Assembly (NCBI GenBank): GCA_958295775.1
Contig: CATQHC010000002.1
Location: forward strand, 653,663 to 717,662
DNA length: 64,000 bases
Origin: Chloroflexota bacterium
GTDB taxonomy: Bacteria; Chloroflexota; UBA11872; VXOZ01
Direction: 5' to 3'
The notes beneath the pieces are model-generated. The model was not told the DNA's origin and did no database searches. It saw only the letters and a list, made by a program, of their open reading frames with translations. The position numbers were made by a program, and so were the translations under genes. Below are positions 45,007 through 61,534 of the stretch, in pieces (within the stretch, counting starts at the first letter, position 1; every line of letters starts with the position of its first letter).

Positions 45007-46497
45007 CTAGTTGAGTTGTGCGCTGACAACGGACAGCCCGAGCGACGGCACAGTCAGCAGCAACTCTCCGTCAGCATTCACGGTCGCGCTTCCTGACGCC
45101 GGTCTAATCACATCGGGCCTTTCCCACGAGTTGTGCGACTTGGGGTCGTGGCCGGTGAGAACGGTGACGTTGACTCTGGGATCTACTCGAAGGCTGTCAA
45201 GAGATATCCGGACATCAAGATCCTGTTGGAGGCTTCTGTTGACAATGAATACGGAAATCTTGTGTGTTGCCGGGTCATGGCTCGCCGAGACATCCAGCAT
45301 CGGCGCCTCACCTCTAGAACCGGCTTCGTAGGTCGGCCCCTCAACAATGGGGGAAAGCGAAAAACCCCGCGCGTGTTCGGAATAGAACTGCAACGGATAG
45401 AAGATACTTTGGATTAGCATGCCGTCGGGCTTTGTCAAAATAGGGGCTATGACGTTGACTATCTGCGCAAGGCAGGCAATCTTTACGGTGTCGGCATGGC
45501 GCACGAAGCTATTCAGGAACTGGGCACAGACCAGCGCATCCTCAAGGTTGTAGACCTCTTCGAGCAAGTGGGGTGCGCGGCTCCAGGCTCCGTCTCCCTG
45601 ACGGTCCTTGTACCAGACATTCCACTCGTCGAACGCGACGTAGACTCGCTTGTCGCTCTTCTTGACGCCGCGCACGTAGGCGAGCAGACCGGCGTAGTCT
45701 TTCAGAATCCGGTCGATCTCCACGCCCTCGGCCAGGAACCACGCGCTATCATCGTCGTAGTTACGGCTGTAGCGATGTGCAGAGACATACTCCACGTCGT
45801 CCCAGCAGGACTCCAGTACGACGCGATCCCATTCCAGGTACGTGTCCATGTAACGCCCTGAGGTGCCGCACGCCACGAGCTCGATCGTAGGATCCAGCCC
45901 CTTCATGAGGCGGGCGGCTTGCTGTGCCTTGACCGCGTACTCACCAGCCGAGCAATGGCCAGCCTGCCAGGGACCGTCCATCTCGTTACCAAGACACCAG
46001 AGCTTTACGCCATGAGGGTCGGCGCTGCCATTCTCACGTCGCGCATTCGCATAATGCGTGCCGCCCGGCAGGTTGCAATACTCGACCAATTCTGCCGCAT
46101 CCCGGGATCCCAACGTGCCGAGATTTACCGCCATCATGGGCTCTATATCCATCCAGCGGCACCAGCGCACAAATTCATCAACGCCAAACGTGTTTGGCTC
46201 GATGCTCCGCCACGCGAAGTCCGGCCGCACGGGACGCTGGTCTTGTGGGCCCACCCCGTCGCGCCAATCGTAATTGCTGACGAAATTCCCGCCCGGATAG
46301 CGAACATACGGCATGGCTAGTTTCCGCAGCGCAGCCGCCACGTCGGTCCGAAACCCATCTGAGTTGCTCAGCGGATTGCCGGGATCGAAGACGCCCTCGT
46401 ACACCGCCCTACCCAGGTGCTCCAAGAAACCGCTGAATATACGCCGATCTATCTCTCCCACGTGGTGATCGAGATCCAAGCGAATTGATGCTACCAT
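45007..46497 (-). CDS. Alpha-L-arabinofuranosidase (GH51)
   Basis: GH51 N-terminal FLEHLGRAVYEGVFDP and catalytic GNE/E motifs; ~500 aa. Confidence 0.85.
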   Translation of the reverse strand: MVASIRLDLDHHVGEIDRRIFSGFLEHLGRAVYEGVFDPGNPLSNSDGFRTDVAAALRKLAMPYVRYPGGNFVSNYDWRDGVGPQDQRPVRPDFAWRSIEPNTFGVDEFVRWCRWMDIEPMMAVNLGTLGSRDAAELVEYCNLPGGTHYANARRENGSADPHGVKLWCLGNEMDGPWQAGHCSAGEYAVKAQQAARLMKGLDPTIELVACGTSGRYMDTYLEWDRVVLESCWDDVEYVSAHRYSRNYDDDSAWFLAEGVEIDRILKDYAGLLAYVRGVKKSDKRVYVAFDEWNVWYKDRQGDGAWSRAPHLLEEVYNLEDALVCAQFLNSFVRHADTVKIACLAQIVNVIAPILTKPDGMLIQSIFYPLQFYSEHARGFSLSPIVEGPTYEAGSRGEAPMLDVSASHDPATHKISVFIVNRSLQQDLDVRISLDSLRVDPRVNVTVLTGHDPKSHNSWERPDVIRPASGSATVNADGELLLTVPSLGLSVVSAQLN

Positions 46498-46607
46498 CCA
46501 AAACTCCGTAGGAATCGTGCCATCCGAAGGCGCAATCGGTCAGTTGAGCGATCACTCAAGTGTGTAGCATTGTTCAATTGATCAGGGTCAAACTCAATTG
46601 AAATGAC

Positions 46608-47411
46608 CTAGAAACTAGCAGTATTTGGGAGATCCACTCGAACCTTCTCGATAAGCGAAAGCAATTCCGAATAGGTGTTGGGCCCGCCAATGTAGTCCCA
46701 TAGCTCGCTGCCAATTAAGACCTGCTTCTCCATGTCCATTATTTGTTTTGTAAATGAGTGCCCATAGCGATCCCGCGTCACGTAAGGGTTATAGGTCAGG
46801 CCCAGATACGCCCTGGATCTATCGATTCCTCGTCTGTTCATTATGGTCAAGTAATACAGCAGCTTTCTCTTAGACTCTGCAGCAACATCCAGATTAGGGA
46901 GAGGACTCTTCAACTCAACAAGCAAGGGCCCTTGTTCAAAGTCATCTATGTATAGGTCGGCAGTTACCGATCTATTTGACTGTCCACCACCACGCGAATA
47001 AAGGATGTCTCCCATCTCGCCCTCATGGTCAGGTCTTCTCGGAGACTCCCGTTGAGATTGAGGCGTCCGGAGCTCGGTCACAATCTGCTCGATCATATTT
47101 ATAGCTGCATCGTTTACAGTGCCTTCAACAACGTGCTCCGTGTGAACACTCTTGAATCGACCAAACGCAACGGCTTTGGCCAGAGCTGGGTAAAGCCTCG
47201 TGCCCATCGATGTCACAACACTCCGCTCAACCCTGGCCGCCAAGATTGCTTCTTCAGGAAAGAAAATCTGGTGGAACGGATATCCGAGTCTTATGTCTTC
47301 GATCGTCCACTTGCTCAGTTTGGGAATCTGACTTGCAGCAAACTCCCTTAGGACACCAAAGACAGCGTCTCTTGTCGTGGAATTCAACCCTACTATCCTT
47401 TTGCCGCCCAA
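46608..47411 (-). CDS. Putative type II restriction endonuclease (PD-(D/E)xK-like), low GC
   Basis: 267 aa, D...(E)LK core (DLYIDDFEQGPLLVELKS); immediately downstream of and overlapping a DNA methyltransferase gene; GC ~50% versus ~62% flanks. Confidence 0.6.
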   Translation of the reverse strand: MGGKRIVGLNSTTRDAVFGVLREFAASQIPKLSKWTIEDIRLGYPFHQIFFPEEAILAARVERSVVTSMGTRLYPALAKAVAFGRFKSVHTEHVVEGTVNDAAINMIEQIVTELRTPQSQRESPRRPDHEGEMGDILYSRGGGQSNRSVTADLYIDDFEQGPLLVELKSPLPNLDVAAESKRKLLYYLTIMNRRGIDRSRAYLGLTYNPYVTRDRYGHSFTKQIMDMEKQVLIGSELWDYIGGPNTYSELLSLIEKVRVDLPNTASF

Positions 47412-48619
47412 ATCAGAACGCTCTCGAAGAAATCTCCAGCCCTTCTTCCCGTCCTTCTGTTTACGTGTCTCTCAAGCCTAGTCTCAAGAGACACTCCAAT
47501 TTGCTCCTGGACTGTCTCGTAGAGACCATACTTGTCGTTGACGATAACCACCATTCGACCGTCTTTGGAGAGGCTCCTCTTGACATTCTCAAACGACTCG
47601 ATCATCTTTTTGACGTACTCAGCTTGCGCTCTCTGCGAGCTTCCATTCGTGGCTGGACCAATCTCCTCCTCAGCCTTCCACTCTAGACCCAGCAACTCGT
47701 ATGCATACCTATGTTGCTCATGATAGTCAATAAGCCCCACATATGGTGGCGAGGTGACTACAAGGTCGTACTTTGGGAACTGGGCTCTTCTCGTGTCGTC
47801 AGTAGCTATGAGTGTGGCCACATTTTTGCGAACATCAGCAAACTCACGAATTCGTTTGAGTGTATCGTTGCTATATCGTTTCAAAAACTGTGCAGAGTTT
47901 TTTGTTGGTCTGCAGGTTCGGCTATGTTTATAGCAGTAATAGGGTTCAGTTTGAGGCTGCTTTGGAAAGTCGAGGTCAAAATGCGTTGTAAGGCGCGCCG
48001 ACCTGGCTGCCCTTGATAAGATCACCCTGAGGACGTCACTGTAAGTGTAATCTTCAATGTGCTTCCGGTATGCTAGCAACGAACCTAGTGCTTGAGGCGC
48101 AAACCACGACTGTAGGTAGTCACTCACGTTATACTCGGCTTTTTGTTCAAGCAACGAGAGTTGGTTAGTGCCAAGCGCCCTCTTCAACGCATCGTTAATC
48201 TCATACTCAAGTAGACTTAGGTCGTACTTGCCTGTCTTTACTCGGGTCATTAGGGTGTTGAATTCGGAAATATCACACCCTATCGCATTTATCCCTAGCG
48301 ACGCCGCTTCAACCAAGGTTGTGCCCGAGCCGCAAAATGGATCACAGACCGTTGTAGGCTCAAATTTGCGTAGGAATATCTCGACCAACTGGGGAACGAA
48401 CTTTCCAAGATAGGGATGAAGGCGATGGACATGTTTCGTCCGAATTCGCTCCGGCAAGTCGCTTTCGCGCCAGTTGAGATTGAGGACTTCTAGCTTCGTA
48501 CTTGACCTAACTGAATCGAACGCGGTGAACGGGTCCGTTTGATAATCGGGATCGTACCCATATGACCTGTCGGCGCCAAGAGGTGATGTAGATGAGAGAT
48601 TGGTCTTGGTCTGCTTCAT
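47393..48619 (-). CDS. Site-specific DNA methyltransferase (N4-C or N6-A, amino-MTase)
   Basis: Motif I DPFCGSGTT and motif IV SPPY; low GC; start chosen at MKQTKT (ATGA overlap with the upstream stop); longer alternative starts at 48655. Confidence 0.8.
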   Translation of the reverse strand: MKQTKTNLSSTSPLGADRSYGYDPDYQTDPFTAFDSVRSSTKLEVLNLNWRESDLPERIRTKHVHRLHPYLGKFVPQLVEIFLRKFEPTTVCDPFCGSGTTLVEAASLGINAIGCDISEFNTLMTRVKTGKYDLSLLEYEINDALKRALGTNQLSLLEQKAEYNVSDYLQSWFAPQALGSLLAYRKHIEDYTYSDVLRVILSRAARSARLTTHFDLDFPKQPQTEPYYCYKHSRTCRPTKNSAQFLKRYSNDTLKRIREFADVRKNVATLIATDDTRRAQFPKYDLVVTSPPYVGLIDYHEQHRYAYELLGLEWKAEEEIGPATNGSSQRAQAEYVKKMIESFENVKRSLSKDGRMVVIVNDKYGLYETVQEQIGVSLETRLERHVNRRTGRRAGDFFESVLIWAAKG

Positions 48620-49797
48620 AGAGAAACAGTAACCCATCCGAGTTCTTCCCGCCAATTCGGCGCAACGTCGCCGAACCTATCCATGCGCAATCCGCTTATG
48701 TCAACGCTCGTATCGCCGTGGAGCGCCAATTCGCTCACGACCCTGCCTGTGGCGCCTGCGATGGCGAAGCCATGGGCCGACGCGGAGACAAACACAAAGT
48801 TGCTCGGATTGTCGAGGATGTCAATGATTGGCAGGGAGTCCGGTGCCTGTTCTATCACGCCGGCCCAGCTCCGGATTACCGGCACGTCCGCCACCCCTGG
48901 GAACAAGTCTGCCAGCCGCCTGGCTATGTTTCGAATGAGCGGCGTGTTGGGCTTGCTGGGATCGGAGGTCAGATCCACATCGATCCATTCGTGGGGCCCC
49001 CCTCCATAGAGCAGGTTGCCCTTCTTAGCCTGGCGCCCGTAGAGTCCGTTTCCCACCAGGGCGAATTGAAAGAGTGGCTCTAAGGGAGCGGTGGCAATAA
49101 TCTCTGCCCGTGCCGTTGCGAGCGGAACGCGCACGCCCACCATCTCTAAAAACAACGCAGTTTGCGGTCCGGCAGCACATACAACCGTGTCGGTCTCAAT
49201 GGCGCCGGCGGTCGTCTCAACCGCTGAGACCCTCTCGCCGGCGAGCTTGAAACCCGTGGCGGCGGTATGCTGGTAGAGCTTGCCGCCCCGGTCTTGAAAG
49301 GCCCAGGCAAATGCCTGGACTGATCGTTGAGGGTTCGCGTGCGCGCCCTTCGGGAAAAAGATCCCGCCGAGCGATCTATCGGTGACGTACGGCGCCATGT
49401 CCTTGATTTCGGATGGGTCCAACACGTCCACTTGTACGCCGAAACGTTCCCCTACCTCTCGTTCGGTCAGGTAGCGGTCCATTTCCGGTTCGGATACGGC
49501 TATTTGGAGCCTGCCTGCTTGCACGAACTCAGTGGGATAGCCCAGCTCATCGTCCAGCATCTCCCATAGTTTCACAGACTCCACCGCCAACGGCACCAAA
49601 GCCGGCTCGTCAGTTCGCTCGCTGATCATCCCGCCGTTGCGCCCGGAAGCCTCGGCTCCGACGACACTCTTCTCGACGACGACGACATCCTTGCCCGCCT
49701 TGGCCAGATAATAGGCTGTGCTGAGGCCCGAAATGCCACCGCCAATGACGACTACGTCTGCTCTGTTGCTAGGCATGCTGCCACTCCGCTGATCCAC
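48616..49797 (-). CDS. FAD-dependent oxidoreductase, sarcosine-oxidase-beta / HcnC / OoxB-like
   Basis: VVIGGGISG dinucleotide motif, DAO-family architecture, ~390 aa. Confidence 0.8.
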   Translation of the reverse strand: MDQRSGSMPSNRADVVVIGGGISGLSTAYYLAKAGKDVVVVEKSVVGAEASGRNGGMISERTDEPALVPLAVESVKLWEMLDDELGYPTEFVQAGRLQIAVSEPEMDRYLTEREVGERFGVQVDVLDPSEIKDMAPYVTDRSLGGIFFPKGAHANPQRSVQAFAWAFQDRGGKLYQHTAATGFKLAGERVSAVETTAGAIETDTVVCAAGPQTALFLEMVGVRVPLATARAEIIATAPLEPLFQFALVGNGLYGRQAKKGNLLYGGGPHEWIDVDLTSDPSKPNTPLIRNIARRLADLFPGVADVPVIRSWAGVIEQAPDSLPIIDILDNPSNFVFVSASAHGFAIAGATGRVVSELALHGDTSVDISGLRMDRFGDVAPNWREELGWVTVSL

Positions 49798-49807
49798 TGA
49801 TCATTGC

Positions 49808-51340
49808 CTACCCCAACACTCTACTCACGGGAATGAACCACTTCACCCAATTCTCGCGCATTTGCTCCGTCTCATCGTGCGGCCACATGACACTCAGCGA
49901 CAAAGGTCGCACCGGCGGTCGAATTGACATTTGCGGAATTTCTGCTATATCGGTACCGGACTCTGCAGCAAGCAGCAGTGATACTTGCTCAAGGCAACGC
50001 CGGCCCTGGCAGTGGCCCATTCCCACCCGCGTCAGACGCCTGACCTGGTCCGGATTGACCGGTCCGTCCAGCAACTGTGTCTGAACGCTCCGGTTGCCCA
50101 TCTGCTCCGATTGCCAGTCCAAGTACCGCGGCGGCTCCAAGTCTATGAGCTCAGCCCGCGTGACCTTCTCGCACTCGCAGGCATTGACTTCCAACCCACC
50201 GGCGTTGACGAGACTTTGCAGCCACTGCATCCAAGTCGAGTGCGCCTCAGTTGGTGATGCGGTGACTTCCCTAGCCTGAATCTCAGATCTGCGAGCAAGG
50301 GACTGCTCCCTATCAATAGCGCCTAGTGACTTGGCGGCCGCAATGCCGGCGAGGCGACCTTGGTTTCGCGCTATCTCAGGGTTAAGGATCATATCGTCGT
50401 GTACACCGGCGGCGTCGCCAGCGACGAATACAGTGTCGTCGCTAGTTCGCATCCACTCATCGTGACTAGGCACGTATCCGCCCAGCTCAGACTTGAAAGT
50501 AGTATTGCAACCCAGGAGACTGAGGAGCTCTATGTTAGGTACGAGACCGATTGCGACGCAGACGGTGTCGGCGGCGACGGCCTTCTCAGAGCCGTCAATT
50601 GGTTCGTACTGGTCGTCGATCTCAACCAGCACGACGGACTCTATCTCAGCGTCGTTGCCGGCGGCTACCTTAACGGTGTGAGACGTGTATAGCTCTACAC
50701 CCTCTTCCAGTAACCCCGCCAAAAGGGCCTCGTCGCCGCGTGCGGAGGAGGACACGTCCACAATTGCCGCAACCTCGATTCCACAATTCAGCGCCATCCT
50801 GGCAGTGTTGAGACCCAGGTTGCCTGAACCCAAGACCACCATGCGCCGCGCGTTCAATGCCTGGTATTGACTCAGCAACGCGTGGGCGCCGTTGGCTCCC
50901 ATAGCCCCTACCAAGTTCGACCCGGCAAAAGACATGCTCAAGTCTCGGGAACCTGCTGCAACAATGAGCCGGTCGTACTTGATCACCCACGACCGTTTGT
51001 AGTCAGACAAGCCAAGTTGCGGGCCGTCCAGTGCCCGGCTGGTGTCCGTATTGCGAAAGGCGCCCCACACGCACGTGCCGAGTTGAACGTCGACGCCGGC
51101 TGCCTTGGCTGCCGACAGCGCGCCATTAGTCGCAGCCACTCTCTCCAGCATCACGTCCCGGTTGCTGACCGTGTCTGAAAACCGTTTGCCGAAGAACTGA
51201 GGAACGTCCAAGCCCAGCATGGACTCACTGATGGGGTTCTCATCAATGAGCGTTACCTGTACGCCGGCCTGGGCCGCTGCGATGGCAGCAGCCGTCCCGG
51301 CCGCGCCCGCTCCCACCACTACCAGTTGTTTGGACACCAT
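49808..51340 (-). CDS. NAD(P)/FAD-dependent oxidoreductase with C-terminal BFD-like [2Fe-2S] domain (HcnB/OoxA/SoxA-like)
   Basis: Two Rossmann GxGxxG motifs (VVGAGAAG; VLGSGNLG) and C-terminal CxC...CxxRC cluster (CECEKV...GHCQGRRC). Confidence 0.8.
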   Translation of the reverse strand: MVSKQLVVVGAGAAGTAAAIAAAQAGVQVTLIDENPISESMLGLDVPQFFGKRFSDTVSNRDVMLERVAATNGALSAAKAAGVDVQLGTCVWGAFRNTDTSRALDGPQLGLSDYKRSWVIKYDRLIVAAGSRDLSMSFAGSNLVGAMGANGAHALLSQYQALNARRMVVLGSGNLGLNTARMALNCGIEVAAIVDVSSSARGDEALLAGLLEEGVELYTSHTVKVAAGNDAEIESVVLVEIDDQYEPIDGSEKAVAADTVCVAIGLVPNIELLSLLGCNTTFKSELGGYVPSHDEWMRTSDDTVFVAGDAAGVHDDMILNPEIARNQGRLAGIAAAKSLGAIDREQSLARRSEIQAREVTASPTEAHSTWMQWLQSLVNAGGLEVNACECEKVTRAELIDLEPPRYLDWQSEQMGNRSVQTQLLDGPVNPDQVRRLTRVGMGHCQGRRCLEQVSLLLAAESGTDIAEIPQMSIRPPVRPLSLSVMWPHDETEQMRENWVKWFIPVSRVLG

Positions 51341-51418: not shown

Positions 51419-52480
51419 CTAGACGCCGGCGCGTGTGGAGGCTATCTCATCAGGCAGAGCGCCCGACAAGGCCTCGATGTAGTTGGGACCAAATCCACAG
51501 CACGTCCCTATGACCTGGGTTCCCATGTCAACCCATTTGGCGGCTACGTGCGTCAAGGCTTCGGCAGACTCTTCGTTGCCGATACTGCCATCCTGCCAAG
51601 TGTCAAGATAGTCTTCCCTGCCTGCGTCCGGATACGCCAGAATAGGGCCCGGCCACTGATCGATGACGACCTGAAGCGCCTTTGTGGTATCGCTTACTCT
51701 GCTATGAAACACACCGAGTACATCGGGCCCCACCTGGGCGATCTCGCTGACGGCCTGGGCCAATGTCTTTTCATTGTCAACCGGCCGCCAAGTGGAAGTC
51801 CACATCGGCATTCCCAAGCCAATACTGTAATTGCGATCATCGGCAAAATCCATCCTGACCGTCTGACCGTCAGGCGCCAGTGATGCCGTAAATGCCACCC
51901 ATACCGGCAGACCGGTGCTCTTGGCCGCCTCAGCGGCAATTGCCCTGGATTCGTTGTCGGCCCACAGGTTTTCAATCAGAAAAAAGTCCACCCCGGATTC
52001 AGCCAGAATGTCCGCCTGCTCTTTGGCGTGAAAACTCAACTCCTCCACCGAGAGACTGGCGCCGTAGCCATAGCCGGTGCCGCCCAGGAGTGTCCCCGTC
52101 TTGCGGTCGCGAATCGGAATGCGGCACGAGATTGAGCCGGCGATGTACACAGGCCTGTCGCCAGCAGCCCGTTCCCTGGCCTCCAGCGCTGAATCCACGG
52201 CGCGGATGTTGACCTCGCGCACCAATTCTCCGTAACCGGAAGCCTCTAGAGCGGGACGGAGCGTGTTGAATGTGTTCGTGGTGATTATGTCGGCCCCTGC
52301 CCGTATATACCGCTCGTGCATCTGCCGCACGGTTATCGGGTGGGTATAGCTCCCGGGGCCGCACCACGAGGCCGGGTCCATCGGCACACCCATGGCCTGG
52401 AGCTCTGTCCCAATAGCCCCGTCCAAAACAACCACGTCGCCCTGGTCCAACCGCCTCTTCAACTCATCATAGTTGGCCAT
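51419..52480 (-). CDS. Homocysteine S-methyltransferase-domain protein (MmuM/BHMT-like)
   Basis: N-terminal LDGAIGTEL motif and zinc-binding Cys...GTCCG motif typical of the Hcy-binding domain. Confidence 0.8.
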   Translation of the reverse strand: MANYDELKRRLDQGDVVVLDGAIGTELQAMGVPMDPASWCGPGSYTHPITVRQMHERYIRAGADIITTNTFNTLRPALEASGYGELVREVNIRAVDSALEARERAAGDRPVYIAGSISCRIPIRDRKTGTLLGGTGYGYGASLSVEELSFHAKEQADILAESGVDFFLIENLWADNESRAIAAEAAKSTGLPVWVAFTASLAPDGQTVRMDFADDRNYSIGLGMPMWTSTWRPVDNEKTLAQAVSEIAQVGPDVLGVFHSRVSDTTKALQVVIDQWPGPILAYPDAGREDYLDTWQDGSIGNEESAEALTHVAAKWVDMGTQVIGTCCGFGPNYIEALSGALPDEIASTRAGV

Positions 52481-52683
52481 GACCGGAACCTCCCTGATGG
52501 CTCAGCACATTGCCCAAAACTACTCAGAATTCAGCCGACCAAATCCTGCCTTTGCAGGCTGCTGAAAGCTAGCGGCATTCTAGTCTCTTTTAGGTATTCC
52601 GTCAAGCGGTCAAAACGCACAATTCGGTTTGTCTGTCAAACCATGTGAATTGCGCTAAGGTTTGCAGGGCCGTCTCACTCGAA

Positions 52684-56043: not shown

Positions 56044-57579
<1,536 letters not shown>

Positions 57580-58073
57580 CTAGGGTCTTTACCCATTTTC
57601 TCCTATCCCCCCTTACCTCTCCTATACCTAACTCCCTCTCCCTTCATCACCCTTCACCTGCTAAACCCAGCCGCAAACTACTAATACCGCCTATGTCATC
57701 GTCCCTCTCACAAAGAGGGACTTTTTCTTTTACGCCCCCAAGTCAATGCTCCCGCAACAGTCAACCACGCAGAAACAGGTCCCGCGATCCGTTCGTTCCA
57801 ATACAAGTGGCGTCCCTTCTTTATCCGCAGACTTTACCTCGCTAGACTCATCATTCTGTGCGCGGATTTTGATAACTGATTTACCGATGCACGGCCAGAC
57901 CCGTGGCATCGCATGGCTTCCCAAACCGCGGCTTTGCGGAGTTGCACGCCGGCGTTTGCTGCGCTATATTCCTCCTGTGAGAAACTTGGTGTGCCTGCCG
58001 CGAATTTGGCGACGTACAGGCCAAACCGAGGATGGTACAATAGACGAAGAGCCTACGCTACAGCTTGTTTTCC

Positions 58074-58150
58074 GGGCCACTAGCTCAGTTGGTTAGAGCG
58101 CGCCCCTGATAAGGGCGAGGTCTGTGGTTCAAATCCACAGTGGCCCACCA
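58074..58150 (+). tRNA. tRNA-Ile (anticodon GAT)
   Basis: GGGCCAC acceptor, anticodon loop CTGATAA, T-arm, encoded CCA; in the spacer 3' of 16S. Confidence 0.9.
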
Positions 58151-58361
58151 CGACGGCAGCCATACAACCGCCTCTCAGCATGCGCGCCGCAGGCCGAACC
58201 GGGTACTTGGAGAGAGACTTCACCAGGCAACCATTGCGGCATTTGCCTGCAAACCCTTAGGGATTGTTGGAAGATTCAATCCAATTGCCCACCGACATGC
58301 GCGTACCTTGGGCATATTGGTGTGCACCCAGGCGCATGGCAGGCTCTGTGCTGCTAGTCAC

Positions 58362-58437
58362 GGGGATGTAGCTCAGTTGGGAGAGCACCTCCTTTGCAAG
58401 GAGGGGGTCAGGAGTTCGAGTCTCCTCATCTCCACCA
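58362..58437 (+). tRNA. tRNA-Ala (anticodon TGC)
   Basis: GGGGATG acceptor with the G3-U70 identity pair, anticodon loop TTTGCAA, encoded CCA. Confidence 0.9.
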
Positions 58438-61458: not shown

Positions 61459-61534
61459 GGAGATGTAGCCCGGTTGGGAGAGAACCTCCTTTGCAAGGAG
61501 AGGGGCAAGAGGTCGTGTCTCCTCAACTCCACCC
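61459..61534 (+). pseudogene. Degenerate copy of tRNA-Ala (pseudo-tRNA / att-like remnant)
   Basis: Aligns over ~76 nt with tRNA-Ala at 58362-58437 (same anticodon arm CCTCCTTTGCAAGGAG) but has mismatches in the D-, T- and acceptor stems and loses T54. Confidence 0.7.

Follow-up and report, generated by a model that had tools for sequence, protein, structure and literature searches.

How does a type II restriction-modification (R-M) pair come to lie flush against a metabolic operon, and how would it be expressed from there? The question is raised by a 64-kb stretch of a Chloroflexota genome (here called the window, meaning the whole of that stretch), in which a two-gene R-M pair, methyltransferase (M) followed by endonuclease (R), occupies positions 46608-48619 of the minus strand, directly behind the gene for a flavin adenine dinucleotide (FAD)-dependent oxidase. 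Comparison with related genomes shows that the place it occupies is a variable slot, for which the pair is an accessory allele exchanged between species. Taken as a whole, the evidence is best explained if the pair is a functional and orthodox type II R-M system, a candidate for GGNCC-type specificity, which is expressed from the host operon and serves as a swappable allele, and this joint explanation is considered probable. The pair is an intact two-gene defence system of a known family, ordinary as a system; the evolution of the locus is mildly interesting, and would not surprise a specialist. The features of the pair and of its slot are as follows.

46498-48633, no strand assigned: variable segment delimited by blastn breakpoints, comprising the last five or so codons of the oxidase gene, the methyltransferase gene, the endonuclease gene and a spacer
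46498-46607, minus strand: 110-nt spacer from the endonuclease stop to the arabinofuranosidase start, part of the variable segment and unalignable to relatives that lack the R-M pair
46608-47387, minus strand: gene for a TdeIII-family type II restriction endonuclease of 259 aa, start most likely TTG 47387
46908-46958, minus strand: PD-(D/E)xK catalytic core, D144 ... E158-L-K160, within TADLYIDDFEQGPLLVELK of the endonuclease sequence
47393-48619, minus strand: gene for a 408-aa DNA amino-methyltransferase of the N6_N4 family (open reading frame, Pfam, PADLOC)
47396-47400, minus strand: Shine-Dalgarno-like AAGGA, 8 nt upstream of TTG 47387 and immediately before the TAG stop (47395-47393) of the methyltransferase gene
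47741-47752, minus strand: methyltransferase motif IV, catalytic SPPY, aa 290-293, about 190 residues C-terminal to motif I
48317-48343, minus strand: methyltransferase motif I, DPFCGSGTT, aa 93-101, binding S-adenosylmethionine, read from the sequence

That the two genes form a type II R-M pair, as the initial annotation of this DNA had proposed, is borne out by Pfam and PADLOC profile matches to both proteins and by a predicted PD-(D/E)xK fold for one of them, and the two co-directional open reading frames (ORFs) of the minus strand lie exactly where they had been placed. The endonuclease matches the Pfam family PF09520 (RE_TdeIII) at 164.9 bits (cut-off 27.2; E=3.2e-48) over its full length, residues 32-257 aligning with profile positions 20-241 of 242, and PF09520 is found in all 120 endonuclease homologues listed, these being the best 120, as were also listed for the methyltransferase. 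It also matches the PADLOC profile REase_II. The string DLYIDDFEQGPLLVELKS, singled out earlier as PD-(D/E)xK-like, is present, and the residues D144, D149, E158, L159 and K160, which include the E-x-K element, are invariant in the alignment of 33 homologues on which the endonuclease conservation counts are based. An AlphaFold model built from the same alignment (predicted local distance difference test score, pLDDT, 94.2; predicted template-modelling score, pTM, 0.89) has a PD-(D/E)xK fold, for which the nearest structure is that of EcoO109I (PDB 1wtd), followed by PspGI, Bse634I, PfoI, NgoMIV and Cfr10I; searches of PDB sequences with the endonuclease detected no relative.

The longest endonuclease ORF begins at TTG 47411, and it is for this ORF only that the initially reported length of 267 aa and the 19-nt overlap with the methyltransferase gene hold; they are an artefact of ORF calling, and no ribosome-binding site precedes TTG 47411. 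The start has been placed at TTG 47387 because an identical database protein (P0001) is 259 aa long, with homologues of 252-265 aa; because the starts of relatives (ATG in L001, GTG in L002 and TTG in L006, L-numbers denoting loci in related genomes) align with it; and because of the AAGGA site, whose equivalent place in relatives is taken by purine-rich sites. Read in this way, the endonuclease gene most likely begins 5 nt after the methyltransferase stop, without overlap. The NCBI protein MCY4436218.1, of 259 aa and labelled 'TdeIII family type II restriction endonuclease', falls in the same 90% cluster.

The methyltransferase matches PF01555 (N6_N4_Mtase) at 60.2 bits (cut-off 26.7) and the PADLOC profile MTase_II with E=1e-88. 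The PF01555 match comes in two pieces because motif I lies N-terminal to motif IV, an order permuted relative to the beta-class profile. Both of the motifs named in the initial annotation were located, DPFCGSGTT at 48343-48317 and SPPY at 47752-47741 in the direction of the gene. Across the 20 homologues aligned, D93, P94, F95, G97, S98, G99 and T100 of motif I, T289, S290, P291, P292 and Y293 in and beside motif IV, and most of the region in between are invariant, which suggests that a single specificity is shared across the lineage. The best matches of the protein among PDB sequences include N4-cytosine methyltransferases, aligned over motif I only. A 408-aa database protein (P0121) is 100% identical to it, and the NCBI protein MCY4436217.1, 'DNA methyltransferase', belongs to the same 90% cluster.

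To examine the locus in its relatives, the oxidase protein was scanned against one genome per species, giving 80 loci, all of them in uncultured Chloroflexota or Dehalococcoidia genomes with the single exception of one labelled Latescibacterota; a metagenome scan yielded three loci only. The 16 close species considered here are the window, L001 and L002 (reached through endonuclease homologues) and the 13 nearest loci of the oxidase scan, in which the oxidase is 77-90% identical. Seven of these 16 species carry the M-R pair, always at the same junction after the oxidase, and in the other nine its place is taken by a spacer of about 220 nt and a gene for a GNAT acetyltransferase of 152-167 aa. 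The pair stands alone in the window, L001, L006 and L014, and is followed by the GNAT gene in L002 and L062. When the window was compared by blastn with the nine species that lack the pair, homology was found to stop 15-18 nt before the oxidase stop and to resume at the arabinofuranosidase start, so that the oxidase ends differ between carriers and non-carriers (...GWVTVSL in the window as against ...PVPARA). The initial annotation had described an insertion flush against a native operon: the junction is upheld, being the same in all seven carriers, but what took place is the replacement of one allele, a spacer-GNAT segment, by another, and not a simple insertion. The GNAT gene of L003 (L003:11408-11917), the closest relative of the window, has an in-frame stop and looks like a pseudogene; in the window the gene has been lost altogether.

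The only two loci close enough to each other to show breakpoints are L001 and L012; they have an identity of 96.7% across 5 kb of the left flank and of 95.1% across 9 kb of the right flank. Between these flanks the M-R segment of the one (L001:8760-10892, 2.1 kb) is swapped for the spacer-GNAT segment of the other (L012:11170-12080, 0.9 kb), with one breakpoint after the oxidase codons G-W-I-P, 12 nt before the stop, and the other exactly at the arabinofuranosidase GTG. The first 1 kb or so of the right flank is less identical between the two (0.81-0.93) than the sequence further out, and may mark a recombination tract. More widely, carriers are scattered among non-carriers on the trees of both flanks, and the R-M tree is incongruent with the flank trees. 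In L002, L005 and L062 the R-M genes are 88-90% identical, as against 72-82% for the flanks, and their synonymous divergence (dS) of 0.34-0.82 is mostly below the 0.66-1.19 of the flanks; the clearest case is that of L002 and L062, with an R-M dS of 0.34-0.58 and flanks at 0.78-1.19. The R-M allele of the window is saturated in dS (>2) against all others, the window oxidase having dS values of 0.5-1.0.

Three alleles, M-R, M-R-GNAT and spacer-GNAT, are exchanged between species in the slot between oxidase and arabinofuranosidase, and the simplest mechanism would be allelic replacement through homologous recombination in the flanking core genes. A search of 46300-48900 for repeats or a target duplication gave only short matches at chance level; there is no transposase or integrase beside the pair, its neighbours being metabolic genes; and a search for a recombination footprint found that the quarters of the oxidase and arabinofuranosidase genes next to the slot are no closer to the window in carriers than in non-carriers. 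Carriage by phage or plasmid was considered and rejected: viral contigs contain no close relatives, and phages and Clostridium plasmids have only distant members of the family, of 23-34% identity.

The second part of the question, how the pair might be expressed, turns on the neighbouring genes, which are as follows.

51419-52480, minus strand: HMT gene, first gene of the cluster
49808-51340, minus strand: soxA-like flavoprotein gene, second gene of the cluster
48616-49797, minus strand: soxB-like FAD-dependent oxidase gene (DAO family; Pfam DAO E=1.7e-74), last native gene of the cluster
48616-48619, minus strand: ATGA overlap of the methyltransferase ATG (48619-48617) with the oxidase TGA (48618-48616), read from the sequence
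45007-46497, minus strand: alpha-L-arabinofuranosidase gene, beyond the 110-nt spacer
52577-52605, minus strand: candidate sigma-70-like promoter, a consensus match TTGACG-17-TAGAAT upstream of HMT

The trio of HMT, soxA-like and soxB-like genes is syntenic in about 80 Chloroflexota genomes and is therefore a native cluster, although the match of the oxidase to the NCBIfam soxB subfamily (E=6e-48) is below the cut-off of that family. The longest oxidase ORF starts at GTG 49797 and has 393 aa; ATG 49776, which has a GGAG site and fits the 386-aa calls in relatives, is probably the true start, giving 386 aa. HMT, soxA-like, oxidase, M and R genes are co-directional, separated by 78, 10, -4 and 5 nt, after which comes the 110-nt spacer. 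The initial annotation had noted that the methyltransferase start codon overlaps the oxidase stop, and so it does, by two shared bases. ATGA stands at the junction in all seven carriers, and in six of them it provides the methyltransferase start, a second R-M pair intervening in L005; it is kept although the codons on both sides of it, at the end of the oxidase gene and at the beginning of the methyltransferase gene, differ in every carrier, and where the pair is absent the sequence is CTGA or TTGA. The methyltransferase ATG lacks a Shine-Dalgarno site, whereas ribosome-binding sites are found for HMT (GGGAGG), soxA-like (AGGAGG), oxidase (GGAG) and endonuclease (AAGGA) genes, and one of GGAG type also precedes the arabinofuranosidase start. 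The candidate promoter upstream of HMT is the only sigma-70-like match between 44.8 and 53.4 kb, and a consensus scan for terminator-like sites found none between the oxidase and the endonuclease and none in the 110-nt spacer. In or beside 46498-48633 there is no ORF of at least 60 aa except antisense ORFs, and none of the kind expected for a helix-turn-helix (HTH) controller or C-protein, which agrees with the earlier remark that none was visible.

Because there is no C-protein, no upstream intergenic space and no ribosome-binding site at the ATGA, transcription driven by the operon, together with coupled translation, is the preferred reading, and read-through from the host operon fits the evidence. 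The pair would be transcribed by read-through from the promoter upstream of HMT; the methyltransferase would be translated by ribosomes finishing the oxidase, through termination and reinitiation at the ATGA; and the endonuclease, 5 nt further on, would be translated from its own ribosome-binding site. The order of M before R would suit the usual need for protection ahead of restriction. Between the HMT start codon and the only promoter-like site there is a terminator-like hairpin (52548-52525), which might act as leader or attenuator for the operon that carries the R-M pair; a search upstream of the operon for a riboswitch or attenuator gave no Rfam match.

As to what the system would recognise, the methyltransferase would be expected to shield host sites and the endonuclease to cut incoming DNA that is unmethylated. 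TdeIII is a GGNCC enzyme and a named founder of the RE_TdeIII family, and the SPPY form of motif IV is typical of N4-cytosine enzymes. The presence of SPPY here suggests methylation to N4-methylcytosine (m4C), and the family assignment together with the structural kinship to EcoO109I (RGGNCCY) suggests a short interrupted palindrome. From the named family members and the same kinship, GGNCC is the best guess for the site, and may be given about an even chance of being correct. MjaII, which is named as an RE_TdeIII member in a plasmid annotation, recognises GGNCC and has the 5-methylcytosine (m5C) methyltransferase M.MjaII as its partner (PMC11033074), and in Treponema denticola TdeIII has been shown by experiment to act as a restriction barrier (PMC12878829).

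Low GC content was the ground on which the initial annotation had proposed horizontal acquisition, and the deficit is real: 46608-48619 is the lowest-GC segment of the window, at 0.489 against a mean of 0.579 for the other 2-kb intervals (standard deviation 0.017, minimum 0.530; z=-5.4), the neighbouring genes lying at 0.56-0.60, slightly under the 60-62% stated. Such a value, 9 points under the mean, might be the un-ameliorated signature of a recent and unique transfer from a low-GC donor, the more so since L003, the closest sampled relative by its flanks (about 90% aa identity), is without the pair, and since a recent swap did take place in the lineage of L001 and L012. A transfer of this kind is nevertheless unlikely for the window. 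The same pair stands at the same junction in six other species; the divergence of their R-M proteins from the window allele (70-79% aa identity, dS saturated) equals or exceeds that of the flanks; and none of the 120 best homologues of either protein points to a donor outside the Chloroflexota, the few with a named source being from Chloroflexi/Chloroflexota or Dehalococcoidia. In addition, in all 16 genomic contexts of the R-M lineage (the seven carriers at the oxidase locus and nine elsewhere) the pair lies 5-16 GC points below its host (flanks 54-65% GC, pair 40-54%), so that the deficit is a persistent trait of the lineage and does not date the acquisition. Horizontal acquisition itself is supported by the patchy presence of the pair; low GC alone is no sign of recent transfer, being compatible with repeated movement between hosts and no proof of a recent arrival in the window. 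Several observations also tell against operon-driven expression. The promoter scan was built on an E. coli-type consensus, a promoter could still lie in the oxidase 3' end, and at other loci the same R-M lineage lies behind 78-525 nt of its own upstream DNA; where it follows divergent genes or spacers of 78-525 nt it must carry a promoter of its own. A further in-frame ATG lies at 48637 behind a weak GGGAAG ribosome-binding site; it would lengthen the methyltransferase by 6 codons and could be its true start, but this codon is set by the conserved Gly-Trp codons of the oxidase and is CTG in one relative. The pair might on these grounds be self-sufficient, with a promoter in the oxidase 3' end and an ATGA that is a by-product of tight packing, start and stop codons each being conserved for separate reasons. 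This seems rather doubtful, though somewhat less so than a recent transfer, given that the 3' half of the oxidase gene has no sigma-70-like site, that the ATGA persists in every carrier while the adjacent codons have changed in all of them, and that the oxidase-tail copy of about 45 nt which precedes the methyltransferase in L005 ends in an equivalent GTGA overlap.

The case for GGNCC is open to challenge on several counts. MjaII and a family member on a Clostridium plasmid have m5C methyltransferases as partners, the partner here is an amino-methyltransferase, and the specificity may differ with it; the endonuclease is no more than about 33% identical to annotated TdeIII-family enzymes, which again leaves room for a different site; and in a newer Pfam version the endonuclease family is labelled 'HinfI' by one tool, a hint that GANTC enzymes may belong to it. 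Site depletion was calculated for all 16 XYNY'X' palindromes against order-3 Markov and mononucleotide expectations, and depletion of GGNCC and GANTC did not differ among carriers, non-carriers and distant genomes. For GGNCC the observed/expected ratios were 0.91 in the window, 0.96 in carrier relatives and 1.00 in non-carriers by the Markov model, and 0.55-0.84 in carriers versus 0.58-0.76 in non-carriers by the mononucleotide model; inside the R-M genes themselves the site occurs at expectation. The system could thus be functional while reading another site, such as GANTC or some other G-x-N-x-C sequence, or making N6-methyladenine (m6A) in place of m4C, or both. This is a substantial minority possibility, tempered by the GGNCC specificity of TdeIII and MjaII as named founders of the family, by the RGGNCCY site of the nearest solved structure, EcoO109I, and by the N4-cytosine character of SPPY. 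That carriers show no excess depletion of candidate sites, and that the endonuclease starts with TTG, might further be taken as signs of decay or partial inactivity of the system, the endonuclease having lost its ability to cut and the methyltransferase being left an orphan. This is very improbable: both ORFs are full length when set against more than 100 homologues, all the catalytic and most of the structural residues are invariant in both proteins, and the fold prediction for the endonuclease is confident. The ratios of nonsynonymous to synonymous substitution (dN/dS) of 0.06-0.12 for the two genes (0.10-0.11 for the methyltransferase), dS being saturated for some gene pairs, compare with 0.07-0.17 for the flanking core genes, and both R-M genes are under purifying selection.

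Beyond the oxidase locus, 263 endonuclease matches show the M-R lineage to be common among Chloroflexota genomes, where it sits at many unrelated loci, and the pairing of methyltransferase and endonuclease is the same in all 16 contexts. A position flush against the upstream gene was considered as a trait of the whole lineage and rejected, with gaps of 12-37 nt in three contexts and 73-525 nt or divergent neighbours in four; since the lineage has upstream spacers of its own at some other loci, the ATGA fusion belongs to this locus and is not a property of the cassette itself. In L005 (CAXXVD010000005.1) a second R-M pair, L005:2495-4203, lies between the oxidase stop and the TdeIII-type pair, and consists of a 295-aa beta-class N6_N4 methyltransferase and a 249-aa endonuclease of the EcoO109I family (PF14511, E=4e-84), its two genes overlapping by ATGA. 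A diverged copy of about 45 nt of the oxidase 3' tail, at approximately 4160-4203 of L005, ends in the GTGA directly before the TdeIII-type methyltransferase, a duplication seen in L005 only. Should each system follow its family in specificity (RGGNCCY and GGNCC), the sites of the two in L005 would be nested. Among more distant Chloroflexota genomes, DNA methyltransferase (N6_N4_Mtase) or type I HsdM genes also occur within 3 kb downstream of the oxidase in L017, L018, L021, L023 and L038, the HsdM gene of L018 adjoining an AAA_15/AbiEii-like ATPase gene; these make up 6 of the 90 downstream ORFs scanned, and hint at a possible recurrent hotspot for defence genes downstream of the operon. It is tempting to go further and see in the oxidase 3' end a dedicated landing slot for R-M systems across the Chloroflexota, with capture that requires no recombinase, promoterless expression coupled through ATGA or GTGA to a host operon of methyl-group metabolism in place of C-protein control, and possible stacking as in L005, but so broad a proposal is improbable as it stands.

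The system as such adds little, having already been named by automatic annotation in near-identical metagenome-assembled genomes. The locus offers a clean natural case of an R-M pair acting as a swappable allele between core genes, with breakpoints resolved to the base and no mobility machinery, and its conserved stop-start fusion to a host operon makes it a candidate for R-M control independent of a C-protein. An accessory lineage can keep a strong GC deficit through many hosts, which counsels caution in dating transfers by composition, and knowledge of the restriction barriers and methylation motifs of uncultured Chloroflexota would be useful for methylation-based binning and for future genetics. 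Elsewhere in the window, a 16S rRNA gene followed by tRNA-Ile and tRNA-Ala lies at 56045-58437, and a tRNA-Cys at 61459; in the 5.5 kb that remain of the window a 23S rRNA gene was looked for and not detected, so that 16S and 23S appear to be unlinked.

The closest known systems are those of TdeIII and MjaII (PF09520), with which the pair shares a full-length, high-scoring family match of the endonuclease with an invariant D...ExK core, and an organisation as a two-gene unit of M followed by R without a specificity subunit; it differs from MjaII and the Clostridium plasmid member in that their partners are m5C enzymes while the partner here is a 408-aa amino-methyltransferase (PF01555, SPPY), and the endonuclease is only 23-34% identical to annotated members of the family from outside the Chloroflexota. 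EcoO109I (PDB 1wtd; RG^GNCCY), nearest in structure, belongs to a different Pfam family, PF14511, and homology of sequence between the two families was rejected, the hhalign probability against the family of the window endonuclease being 6% and PDB searches giving no sequence match, so that the kinship is at the level of the fold only. C-protein-controlled type II systems such as PvuII, BamHI and Esp1396I have a small HTH controller gene beside R. The regulatory problem is common to both, namely that in a newly entered cell the methyltransferase has to be active ahead of the endonuclease, but the pair in the window has neither C gene nor C-box, and its control, if any, would be through gene order and expression from the host operon. 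Nor does it resemble a unit with a long target duplication, a transposon or an integron cassette, as the window has no flanking repeats, duplicated target or linked integrase or transposase.

A review by Ishikawa, Fukuda and Kobayashi (2010; PMC2993543) describes R-M systems as mobile, self-contained units, which insert into operon-like clusters or take the place of genomic regions. The pair resembles such units in having no linked mobility genes, in lying behind an operon-like cluster and in replacing another segment, the spacer and GNAT gene, and the second R-M unit of L005, with its duplicated target tail of about 45 nt, is similar to them as well. It differs from them in that the window shows no target duplication or repeats, and in that the same junction is here reused across many species, with the methyltransferase start fused to the host stop, which that review does not give as a general feature.

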